Below the pieces are notes generated by a model, which was not told the origin of the DNA, did not search any database, and saw only the letters and a program-made list of their open reading frames with translations. From Planctomycetes bacterium HGW-Planctomycetes-1 (GTDB taxonomy: Bacteria > Planctomycetota > Phycisphaerae > Sedimentisphaerales > UBA12454): DNA of 58,675 nt. Positions within the stretch are counted from its first letter, which is position 1, and each line of letters begins with the position of its first letter. The translations under genes and the position numbers were made by a program. Location: positions 1-58,675 of the forward strand of contig PGYD01000003.1 in assembly GCA_002839495.1 (NCBI GenBank). Direction: 5' to 3'. Shown here one piece after another: positions 31,428-35,943 of this stretch.

Positions 31428-31540
31428 ATCCCGCACCTTCTAAATATTTCAGTGAATAAAACAAGGCACTTAAGGACTTAAAGATTTATATATGGGATAT
31501 AGCGAAGTTAAAAACGAAATTAAAGAAGGTGCGGGATGAA
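31425..31540. mobile_element. 108-bp MITE-like element with 13-bp TIRs and TGAA duplication
   Basis: TGAA-TCCCGCACCTTCT (31429-31441) ... AGAAGGTGCGGGA (31524-31536)-TGAA. Confidence 0.75.
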
Positions 31541-32522
31541 CGACAAGGTCGCACAAATTGCACAAGAAATATTAGACGGCAAAATCATCGACAGGGCCGA
31601 GATAAAATATCTTTTTTCACTTGGCGATGAAGATTTTGATGACCTGCTGTATTGGGCGAATCGAATACGCGAAAAGTTTTTCGGCAAAAAAGTGAAAGTC
31701 TGTTCAATAGTCCCCGGCAGGCTCGGCGGATGCAGTCAGGACTGTAAGTTCTGCGCGCAATCTTCAAGATATGAAACATCGTTTAAGAAAACCGAAACGC
31801 TCAGCGATGAGGAAATTTTAAGAGCCGCAAAAAAGGCCAAAGAAAAAGGCGTGCCGAACTTCGGCATAGTTTACAGCGGCAAAACCATCAGCGAAGAAGA
31901 GCTGGCAAGACTTGAAAAGCTGATTGCGAAAATCAAGAACGAAATCGGTATCGGCGTTTGCGGAGGGTTCGGAATAATCAGTTATGAACAAGCTGCCAGA
32001 TTAAAAAAAGCGGGAATGTCGAGATATAACCATAATCTTGAGACTTCACGGAATCATTTTAAGGATATTGTAACGACACACGATTACGATTCGCGCATCG
32101 AGACGGTAAAAGCGGCCAAAAAGGCCGGACTTGGGTTGTGTACAGGAGGTTTATTTGGTATCGGTGAAGAAGATTGCGATAGAATCGATATGGCGATGGA
32201 ATTGCGAGAACTTGACGTTGATATGGTGCCGATGAATTTTCTGCATCCGATAGCAGGCACACCATTGGGCGAATTGCCGACTATGCAGCCGCGGCAAATT
32301 CTGCAATTGCTCGCTTTATACCGTTTTATTTTGCCGAAGGTTCATATAAAAGCGGCCGGCGGCAGGGCATTAAATCTGCGAGATATGCAAAGCTGGATTT
32401 TTTACGCCGGTGCTACGGCAATAATCAGCGGCGATTATCTTACAACAGCAGGCAGGGCGGTTGAAGATGATTTGCGAATGATAAAAGATTTAGGTCTTGA
32501 GGCGGATGTGGTATGCGGATAA
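31536..32522 (+). CDS. bioB: biotin synthase
   Basis: CSQDCKFCAQS, YNHNLET, GLCTGGLFG, VPMNFL, GDYLTT. Confidence 0.95.
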   Translation: MNDKVAQIAQEILDGKIIDRAEIKYLFSLGDEDFDDLLYWANRIREKFFGKKVKVCSIVPGRLGGCSQDCKFCAQSSRYETSFKKTETLSDEEILRAAKKAKEKGVPNFGIVYSGKTISEEELARLEKLIAKIKNEIGIGVCGGFGIISYEQAARLKKAGMSRYNHNLETSRNHFKDIVTTHDYDSRIETVKAAKKAGLGLCTGGLFGIGEEDCDRIDMAMELRELDVDMVPMNFLHPIAGTPLGELPTMQPRQILQLLALYRFILPKVHIKAAGGRALNLRDMQSWIFYAGATAIISGDYLTTAGRAVEDDLRMIKDLGLEADVVCG

Positions 32523-33199
32523 TTGCCGGCACAAAACGGGGAATGACAATTCTGCCGCCGAAAGGCGATAAGACCCGGCCGATAACCGACCGTATCAAAG
32601 AATCCATATTCGATGTGCTGTATAAGTATAATCTTATAGAAGACCGAATCGTTGCGGATTTGTTTTGCGGCACAGGCTCGTTCGGACTTGAGGCTTTGAG
32701 CAGGGGAGCCAAAGAAGCGATTTTCATTGATACCGACAGAAAAGCGATAGAAATTCTCAGAAAAAACATTGCCAAAACGGGTTTTACAGCTCAATCAAAA
32801 GTTGTTTGCGCAAATGCGTTTAAGGTTGGAGCTCCAGCAGGTGCGGGACAAAAATGTTCGCTTGTTTTTGTTGACCCGCCTTATGTAATGAGCAGGGAAA
32901 CCGACGCCAATTCCCGTCTGGCAGGGCTTTTGGAACTTTTGGCCGTTCAGCTTGCCGATGATGGATTGGTTGTAGTTAGAACGGAAAAAAAGATAAACCC
33001 CGTTAGAGACAAGGTGTCAAAGATACCTGACAGCCGTCATAAACGGCCTGTCTCTAACGGGGTAAATCTTCTCGACAGTTACGGCTCTTTGAGGATAATT
33101 GATAAGAGAATATGGAGTACAATGACAGTAACTTTTCTGGTGTTGAGGAAAAATGACCGGCAAACAGGCGGCAATACAGATAATTCGCAAACTGCGTAA
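32513..33199 (+). CDS. rsmD: 16S rRNA m2G966 methyltransferase RsmD, carrying a 23-aa in-frame insertion
   Basis: MRIIAG, TRPITDRIKESIF, DLFCGTGSFGLEALSRGA, DPPY. Confidence 0.93.
   Translation: MRIIAGTKRGMTILPPKGDKTRPITDRIKESIFDVLYKYNLIEDRIVADLFCGTGSFGLEALSRGAKEAIFIDTDRKAIEILRKNIAKTGFTAQSKVVCANAFKVGAPAGAGQKCSLVFVDPPYVMSRETDANSRLAGLLELLAVQLADDGLVVVRTEKKINPVRDKVSKIPDSRHKRPVSNGVNLLDSYGSLRIIDKRIWSTMTVTFLVLRKNDRQTGGNTDNSQTA
32994..33066. mobile_element. 65-bp MITE-like palindromic element with 14-bp TIRs and TAAA duplication, in frame in rsmD
   Basis: TAAA-CCCCGTTAGAGACA (32998-33011) ... TGTCTCTAACGGGG (33049-33062)-TAAA, with two internal hairpins. Confidence 0.85.
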
Positions 33200-34407: not shown

Positions 34408-34480
<73 letters not shown>

Positions 34481-34864: not shown

Positions 34865-35803
34865 ATGCTAAGAGTGATTTCCAAGCAACGCAAAACGAAT
34901 TTTCTTACGCCATCTGGTTTGCGCTGTTTGGCGAATTTGCCTACTGTGAATATTTCAGCAGGTTGCGTTCACAATTGCGTTTACTGTTACACTAAAGGGT
35001 ATTCGATTTATCCCGGCGACAATTCAATCGAAGTTTACGAGAACATGGCAGAGGAGATTGCTAACGAGATCAAACGAAAACGAAAAAAACCTACAGCGGT
35101 TTATTTTTGTCCTTCCTGCGACCCATTTCAACTGGTTCCAGAAGTTCAGCAGATTACTTTTGAGGTAATGAAGATTCTTTTAGAAAATGATATAGGCGTT
35201 CAATTTGTGACTAAAGGAAGTATGCCAGAAGAAATCTTTGATTTATTTGAAAAACATAGTTCGAAAATAGCCGGCCAAATCGGATTGATATCTGTAGATG
35301 AAAAAATCTTGAATATATTCGAACCTAACGCTGCAAATGTATATCAGAGACTTAAACAGCTTGGAAAGCTTGTAAAAATCGGAGTTAAAATGTCCGCGCG
35401 TTGCGACCCAATGATATATGGCCTTACTGATACAAATGAACAATTACAGAATTTATTTTCAGCGGTTGCCAAAACGGGGTGCAGGAAAACCGCGGTTAGC
35501 TTTCTTTTTTTACGACCCGCAATTACTGCCAGTCTCAAAAAGAATATTGTCGATAAAAATATTCTTAATGAAATTTTGAAACCTTTTTCAAAAAGTGTTT
35601 GTTTGCCGATTGGTATTAAAAATTCCACAGGGGCTGTTTTGCCTGTAGAAATCAGGAAAACAACTTTTGGAAAAATCAGGAAAACAGCGAATGATTTTGG
35701 TATCAAAACACACATATGTGGCTGCAAGAACTGTGATATCACAAGAGATAGCTGTTATATTACCCGTGAGCTTAATTCCCAAGAATGTTTATTTCCAAAA
35801 TAA
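34865..35803 (+). CDS. SPL-like (spore photoproduct lyase / DNA-repair type) radical SAM protein
   Basis: GCVHNCVYCY, CDPFQ, FVTKG, FEPNAA...RL; AT-rich. Confidence 0.8.
   Translation: MLRVISKQRKTNFLTPSGLRCLANLPTVNISAGCVHNCVYCYTKGYSIYPGDNSIEVYENMAEEIANEIKRKRKKPTAVYFCPSCDPFQLVPEVQQITFEVMKILLENDIGVQFVTKGSMPEEIFDLFEKHSSKIAGQIGLISVDEKILNIFEPNAANVYQRLKQLGKLVKIGVKMSARCDPMIYGLTDTNEQLQNLFSAVAKTGCRKTAVSFLFLRPAITASLKKNIVDKNILNEILKPFSKSVCLPIGIKNSTGAVLPVEIRKTTFGKIRKTANDFGIKTHICGCKNCDITRDSCYITRELNSQECLFPK

Positions 35804-35855: not shown

Positions 35856-35921
<66 letters not shown>

Positions 35922-35943
<22 letters not shown>

Follow-up and report, generated by a model that had tools for sequence, protein, structure and literature searches.

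The 65-bp palindromic insert lying in frame in the rsmD gene of Planctomycetes bacterium HGW-Planctomycetes-1 is probably a gene-less miniature of a family of 265-300 bp elements that encode only a small GIY-YIG nuclease, with this nuclease probably moving the miniature in trans. We observe a defined anatomy, orthologous sites that are empty in some genomes and filled in others, YNNR duplications derived from the target, preservation of the reading frame, ends common to the miniatures and the nuclease-coding elements, and intact catalytic residues in the nuclease. The insert was found in a window of 58,675 nucleotides, i.e., the whole stretch of DNA that was analyzed. Genomes are referred to by G-codes where they need to be told apart, with G000 being this genome and the others being related genomes, and individual loci are referred to by L-codes.

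The insert proper (32998-33062) is flanked by TAAA on both sides, so that the whole unit occupies 32994-33066, and it adds 23 codons to rsmD (Table 1). This arrangement had been proposed in an initial, sequence-only reading of the region and was borne out, as was the proposed three-way junction with a 14-bp outer stem and two hairpins. Refolding gave 14-bp arms of perfect complementarity enclosing the hairpins AGGTGTC/GATACCT, in which one pair is G.T, and GCCGT/ACGGC. The insert folds strongly both as RNA (z = -10.05) and as DNA (z = -9.5 and -8.5 for the two strands), and 0 of 200 shuffled sequences fold as well. The arms may bear some likeness to integron attC core sites, with the order reversed. 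Neither a GTAG nor a CGTC tag is present at the ends of the rsmD element.

Table 1. Features of the rsmD gene and its insert (positions are those of the window)
Feature	Position	Strand	Remarks
rsmD, 16S rRNA m2G966 methyltransferase	32513..33199	+	228 aa including insert N162-V184; profile matches, orthologue alignment
TAAA, left copy of target duplication	32994..32997	+	fits YNNR
Left terminal arm, 14 bp	32998..33011	+	first 10 bases are those of the arms of GIY-YIG-coding elements
Internal hairpin 1, 7 bp with 3-nt loop	33012..33028	+	differs among subfamilies, with compensatory changes
Internal hairpin 2	33032..33048	+	abuts right arm
Right terminal arm, 14 bp	33049..33062	+	reverse complement of left arm
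TAAA, right copy of target duplication	33063..33066	+	

The host open reading frame is identified as RsmD by Pfam PF03602 (132.7 bits, cut-off 24), with a score against TIGR00095 of 112.3 bits that falls slightly below the cut-off of 117.5. Its SAM-binding motif DLFCGTGS and its DPPY motif are intact, and comparison of 205 codons with the close relative G002 shows 40 silent and 17 residue-changing differences; judged on these motifs and codon differences, rsmD with its insert looks to be a living gene. In an AlphaFold2 model the core of the protein is confident, and pLDDT falls below 50 at residues 161-182, a loop connecting two strands, and at the C-terminal tail. The 23-residue loop is thus predicted by this model to be disordered, and it is probably tolerated rather than useful. 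The earlier suggestion that such an element generates new protein loops stands insofar as a 23-residue loop has been added; usefulness does not follow, with the loop predicted to be disordered and absent from 20 of the 24 alleles in the family.

Alignment of RsmD orthologues shows a clean 23-residue gap opposite the insert, so a gapless alignment, which would have spoken against an insertion, is not what we find. Among the 24 family genomes with a match to rsmD (26 were searched), 4 alleles are filled and 20 are empty. For example, G002, whose RsmD protein is 92% identical, has the same flanks with a single TAAA, i.e., an exact empty site, and removal of the insert therefore restores EKKINLLDSYG, as had been predicted. 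A 283-bp contig from a separate study crosses the filled rsmD site and differs from it in 2 places, and in a contig from another study the 69 bp are skipped at this site. These independent contigs demonstrate that the insert is not an assembly artefact.

This genome contains 27 arm pairs, one of them nested, so the rsmD copy is far from the only one, and a strict end-to-end pattern for the element identified copies in 19 of 41 related genomes, with up to 30 copies apiece and 0 matches in the control. Conservation of the arms among these copies is inflated in part by the search filters, which build it in. Copies that form the junction seen in rsmD number ten in this genome, nine of 65 bp and one of 80 bp. 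All ten add whole codons and lie within open frames of at least 113 codons, with eight in genes named by Pfam (RsmD, PanC, RnpA, PurQ, TyrS, a thermonuclease, and DUF1376 twice) and the remaining two in frames without a name, possibly spurious in one case. The other 16 short copies in this genome are AT-rich, with 4 keeping the frame and 1 lying inside a long frame, and belong to a second class that is mostly intergenic. When copies were pooled and divided at a GC cut-off chosen for this analysis, in a non-random set in which kin are not independent, 59 of 65 GC-rich copies keep the frame and 46 of 65 lie within frames of at least 100 codons, against 25 of 68 and 9 of 68 AT-rich copies, respectively. 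A length of 3n+2 preserves the frame and brings the stop codons of both arms into one frame. The proposal of a mobile element compatible with coding thus gains from many copies, from empty and filled sites, from target-derived duplications, and from frame-preserving insertions in housekeeping genes.

Several individual sites deserve description. At L249 (G000:C108:2847-2944), a 98-bp copy interrupts the N-terminal methylation motif of a gene resembling those of pseudopilins; the motif is rebuilt downstream, in frame. Immediately upstream of the purQ element (L247, G000:C90) is a second, unrelated in-frame insertion of 33 bp, which is absent from 23 of 23 other purQ alleles and whose 14-base core occurs once in the genome. 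A 24-bp hairpin insert adjoins the panC element of G024 (L257), and a short GC-rich hairpin, with a core that has 11 matches in G000, adjoins the element in the thermonuclease gene of G000 (L250). The window also contains a 108-bp AT-rich element of a sister family at 31429-31536, on the start codon of bioB; the arms of this family diverge after the first five bases, and the duplication here is the same TGAA. The sister family has 26 copies in this genome and 0 in a shuffled control, and one of its copies (G000:C58:2234) occupies the site of a main-family element in G009. No coding partner was found for it; a single 271-bp copy lacks such an open reading frame. Further downstream in the window, a PA0069/Rv2578c-like radical SAM gene (34865-35803), scoring below the family cut-offs, is flanked by tRNA genes at 34408-34480 and 35856-35943, together a possible small island.

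Comparison of target sites showed that YNNR is present on both sides of all 65 GC-rich copies, with 48 of the 65 exactly duplicated, and that the element plus 4 bp is the exact difference at 12 of 20 empty orthologous sites. Near-identical copies at separate loci carry different duplications and share no flanks. The outermost pair of the element is variable and tracks the neighboring base beyond the duplication (Fisher test, p 3e-10, with half-sites that are not independent): in 78 of 87 short copies, the terminal pair matches the target flank base on one or both sides, where permutation gives a mean of 55 and 0 of 5000 permutations did as well. A pyrimidine before the 4-mer is never combined with a purine after it. 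Exceptions to this rule are the rsmD copies of G000, G009 and G024, the ends of which fit the common G-TAAA-T allele. We infer that the target is purine-YNNR, with 5 bases duplicated on one side and the element gaining a complementary base at its opposite end; such a pattern of terminal bases would follow if a folded hairpin were joined and then completed by fill-in, and it could instead stem from later correction of the hairpin. Three simpler schemes were considered and rejected: a carried 4-bp core, as in site-specific recombination, as the rule (near-identical copies have different 4-mers), a 2-bp duplication (exact duplicates with non-complementary ends exist), and flank-guided insertion at new sites (near-identical copies elsewhere share no flanks).

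The same sites have been filled in a pattern that does not follow the genomes. Filled rsmD alleles require 4 changes on the tree, and their grouping as a clade is rejected (p-AU 2.6e-80); panC (6 of 26 alleles filled, of which the tree count covered 4), rnpA (6 of 24) and purQ (2 of 24) are patchy like rsmD. The rsmD elements of G000 and G009 are identical (0/65) in genes that are ~15% different, and the 80-bp panC elements differ at 2/80 positions both between G000 and G024 and between G010 and G020, which belong to different genera. Set against flanks that differ by 15, 20 and 25%, these values (0/65, 2/80 and 2/80) give binomial p of 2e-5, 3e-6 and 4e-8, respectively. In the G000/G024 panC pair the identical flank tract is just 7 bp per side. 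Sharing of the same site is patchy and incongruent with the tree, a pattern that homing-like spread to cognate empty alleles or ancestral presence with losses could each give; recent transfer from allele to allele with almost no flank, together with precise loss, is the reading we favor.

A serious rival to this account of spread, which leaves the origin of the element untouched, is that the rsmD, panC and rnpA copies were inserted in the ancestor of the family, were for the most part precisely deleted, and were rewritten by conversion between copies, so that no spread among alleles is needed. We consider this unlikely on balance, and it must be taken seriously because the variants are specific to their sites: in panC, the 6 filled alleles are all of a rare form of 80 bp; in rnpA, one arm variant is common to all 6 copies, in spite of interiors of 65 and 59 bp; and in rsmD, the ends of all 4 copies are C/G, fitting a G-TAAA-T target. 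Hairpins between short direct repeats are subject to precise deletion by slippage, which offers a route to the losses. However, the panC elements of G010 and G020 differ at only 2/80 positions across genera, whereas those of the close pair G010 and G005 differ at 7/80, and those of G000 and G024 differ at 2/80 even though the sisters of these two genomes are empty. The elements are not intrinsically slow to change, since at another site shared by G000 and G009 they differ at 22/65 positions, and a single origin demands many independent precise losses on each tree.

There are also three longer copies, of 265-301 bp, in which a single open reading frame, running from flank to flank, encodes a GIY-YIG nuclease (PF01541) of 90 aa, Slx1-like and consisting of a single domain. 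The full copy in this genome (G000:C163:966-1230, 265 bp) sits on the start codon of nusA; the ATG and the stop codon of the nuclease are supplied by the flanks, the nusA ATG is rebuilt, and all 5 relatives that were searched have an empty site here, two of them on base-by-base alignment. Among the best 80 of 390 related loci in the genome collection, 76 nuclease genes have both arms, 45 of the 76 with an exact 4-bp duplication, and both arms are present at 0 of 23 more distant GIY-YIG loci in relatives. The arm-bearing genes come from Patescibacteria, Omnitrophota, Planctomycetota, Nitrospirota, Thermodesulfobacteriota and others. An exact duplication is missing in 28 of 78 full-length copies. 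All 68 proteins compared have Y12, Y23, G25, R33, H37 and E69 without variation, and the nuclease has the minimal prokaryotic Slx1-like/UPF0213 fold with the Tyr, Gly, Arg, His and Glu catalytic residues (roles as in PMC1564403). The nearest structures are UPF0213, Slx1 and HIGLE, and the latter two are branch-cutting nucleases.

The miniatures and the full-length elements also resemble each other in their interior. A second stem that encloses most of the nuclease gene and abuts the right arm, i.e., the place of hairpin 2 in the miniature, is present in 38 of 75 full copies, a count from which 4 rows with a double-counted terminal stem were dropped. Two miniatures from metagenomes (L394 and L396) retain this full-length second stem with a loop of 3-6 nt. 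A three-way junction universal to full copies is not supported, given this count of 38 of 75 and its absence from the copy in this genome. The only full copy here is of an arm subtype in which the second stem is missing (found in 0 of 14 copies of the subtype), and its match to the rsmD copy is confined to 10 bases at the start of the arm; it may therefore not be the helper of the rsmD subfamily.

Individual nuclease loci show further variation. A full copy in G022 (C22, L050:652-952) lies between CAAG (left) and TGAA (right), and five empty relatives have CAAA; the TGAA provides the nuclease with its stop codon and the following gene with a new start, and may have arrived with the element. 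No clean empty allele was found for L216, a second site with mismatched flanks. At L087 and L169, nuclease genes without a left arm are followed, after the stop codon, by ATGAA and then a fresh left arm, as if a second copy had inserted at the right end. In G000:C112 (L251:1280-1786), ~150 bp separate a GIY-YIG gene that is more distant (48% identical) from several clustered hairpins whose arms are degenerate arms of this family, and the clade to which the gene belongs (L170-L174) is without flanking arms.

It would be a more conventional explanation that the insert is an ordinary MITE moved in trans by a DDE-type transposase that leaves a 4-bp duplication, with the GIY-YIG gene being captured cargo. 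Terminal inverted repeats together with a short duplication, both of which the element has, are the classic DDE signature, and some genomes contain many miniatures where no full copy was detected: among drafts in a set 94-97% complete, in G020, with 10 copies of the strict pattern, nothing matched the nuclease query, and in G009 (8 copies) and G015 (6 copies) the nuclease matches are all distant. We nevertheless regard this explanation as improbable. Apart from one double across a scaffold gap, no arm pair of transposase size (400-6000 bp) was found in this genome and the collected loci. A scan of metagenomes that started from the arms, covering 80 of the 120 matches listed, found a partner arm within 2.5 kb in 33 of the 80; 31 of these pairs are short, one contains a GIY-YIG gene and one is of 216 bp, and none of the 33 is longer, transposase-sized pairs included. 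In these limited samples, the ends are common to GIY-YIG-only elements, and no insertion sequence with a transposase of a known family was found to share them. The nuclease gene is also unlike casual cargo: it overlaps the arms, takes its stop codon from the right flank in 61 of 75 full copies, and encodes proteins that cluster on the tree when they bear arms (5 changes versus 23 when shuffled). The right junction starts a downstream frame of at least 80 codons in 42 of 75 full copies.

Two further alternatives concern what becomes of the insert in rsmD. Its strong RNA fold would suit removal or bypass at the RNA level, by splicing or ribosome hopping, giving a protein without the loop. This is very improbable, as no Rfam family matches the insert, selection for whole-codon length, apparent in the 59 of 65 GC-rich copies above, would be needless, and the core of RsmD is predicted to be intact with the loop present. 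The internal hairpins argue in the same direction. Both partners of a pair changed together in 55 cells (27 expected), with 44 of the 55 restoring pairing, and mismatches are G.T in 47 cases and A.C in 47; neither strand is therefore favored, which fits a structure formed in DNA over one formed in RNA. Domestication, in which the loop or hairpin would be selected for a function in RsmD or its mRNA, could draw on the identity of the G000 and G009 elements in otherwise divergent genes, and is just as hard to credit given that the closest relative is among the 20 empty alleles, that the versions in G022 and G024 encode different peptides, and that the loop is predicted to be disordered.

Mobilization of the insert by the nuclease, which we continue to prefer, can be put as a series of inferred steps comprising cleavage, joining and homing. 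The arms would extrude from the DNA as a hairpin or three-way junction; nicks by the Slx1-like nuclease would follow, both at the base of the junction and at a purine-YNNR target; and the joint would be finished by host polymerase and ligase, with the outermost base pair of the element being copied from the target flank. Selection would then keep the frame-preserving copies in surface loops, since copies of 3n+2 length add whole codons and hold both arm stops in one frame. The copy at a filled site would likely be lost precisely by slippage between the duplications, and would likely spread to alleles of related species that are still empty, taking hardly any flanking DNA along. Taken as a whole, such a scheme might amount to a new class of ~270-bp transposable element whose sole mobilizing enzyme is a branch-cutting GIY-YIG nuclease of 90 residues, which inserts as a hairpin into purine-YNNR, has its outer pair completed by the target, rebuilds start codons, and gives rise to frame-preserving miniatures that add loops to essential proteins and home between species with <10 bp of flank; we advance this broader proposal tentatively, as something close to an even possibility that still leans short of it. 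No strand-transfer activity is known for a hydrolytic nuclease of 90 aa, which counts against the scheme. In addition, characterized GIY-YIG enzymes leave 2-nt overhangs (PMC2761285), versus the 4-5 nt seen here.

How coding palindromes enter genes has been a long-standing question since the Rickettsia palindromic elements (RPEs) were described, and there is now a concrete candidate for the enzyme. Since the 90-aa protein and its 65-bp substrate are both easy to make, the question is directly testable, and the target-templated terminal pair and flank-free sharing between alleles are specific predictions. If the nuclease moves the element, the chemistry involved would belong to none of the DDE, HUH, serine and tyrosine classes of transposition, and the unit would rank among the smallest mobile ones that are self-contained. 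Part of the many stand-alone GIY-YIG genes of uncultured bacteria, and of the odd loops in their proteins, would also be accounted for. The behavior of the coding palindrome is of a known kind, and the nuclease-only parent element appears to be undescribed in print: we found no description of GIY-YIG-only inverted-repeat elements in a literature search that covered few subscription journals (sequences of this kind may be listed in the supplements to PMC11893778 and PMC11602168), and a term search of the main text of a large MITE survey (PMC11602168) gave no mention of GIY-YIG.

RPEs, cited as a precedent in the sequence-only reading, are palindromic repeats that insert in frame in unrelated conserved genes and are tolerated in the protein (Ogata et al.; PMC10969869, PMC2229807), and the rsmD-type element likewise inserts in frame in conserved genes. 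The precedent thus holds as behavior and fails as family membership. The RPEs treated in PMC2229807 are 105-150 bp long and confined to Rickettsia, with their duplication listed as unknown, and the passages on RPEs in PMC10969869 and PMC2229807 name no mobilizing enzyme. The element described here is set apart from them by its description, being 65 bp long, present in Planctomycetota, and having a YNNR duplication and a candidate gene-bearing partner.

GIY-YIG homing endonucleases and Slx1-like proteins have the same catalytic fold, and the patchy filling of cognate alleles resembles homing; the study of Dunin-Horkawicz et al. (2006, PMC1564403) describes one recent Slx1-like insertion in an HsdR and raises the question of whether proteins of this kind are parasitic. 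Unlike homing endonucleases, the elements here have no intron, intein or DNA-binding extension, have inverted ends and duplications at many unrelated loci, and show almost no co-transfer of flanks, with identical tracts of 7 bp in panC. The rsmD copy is itself gene-less and full copies lie at many unrelated loci, which distinguishes them from a homing unit.

TIRtrons and REPtrons, as presented by Di Nocera et al. (2013, PMC3733652), involve tyrosine transposases, and a small enzyme gene flanked by inverted repeats seeds gene-less repeats, some of them intragenic. A small enzyme gene within inverted repeats that probably seeds gene-less families is also what we describe, with the differences that there is no HUH/Y1 enzyme and no GTAG/CGTC tag and that a target duplication is present. 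The rsmD copy is like MITEs such as RUP, Correia and ERIC (PMC2229807) in being short and gene-less, with inverted ends, a target duplication and ends common to a larger coding element, to which empty orthologous sites can be added. It differs from them in that the larger element codes for a GIY-YIG nuclease and not a DDE transposase, that the outermost pair follows the target, and that many copies are coding.

A comparable enzyme is that of the Ssn system (cd10448), a single-domain GIY-YIG protein of ~90 aa whose gene adjoins a hairpin repeat of dispersed type (Chenal et al. 2025, PMC11893778), and the partner described here is likewise a single-domain GIY-YIG protein, of about 90-100 aa. In that work, SsnA nicks single-stranded DNA beside its own hairpin, SRMs are separate hairpins of 28-30 nt near the gene, and the authors liken NTS-ssnA-NTS to an insertion sequence (PMC11893778). 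In contrast, the two arms in our elements overlap the ends of the gene and pair with each other, and they occur with a target duplication and empty sites. Two loci in relatives (L190 and L191) contain GIY-YIG genes with NTS-like flanks that branch apart from the arm-bearing proteins, on a fast tree from a short alignment, and are probably Ssn elements in Planctomycetota. With these two loci as the NTS-like-flanked representatives, both the ends and the tree set the element described here apart from Ssn.
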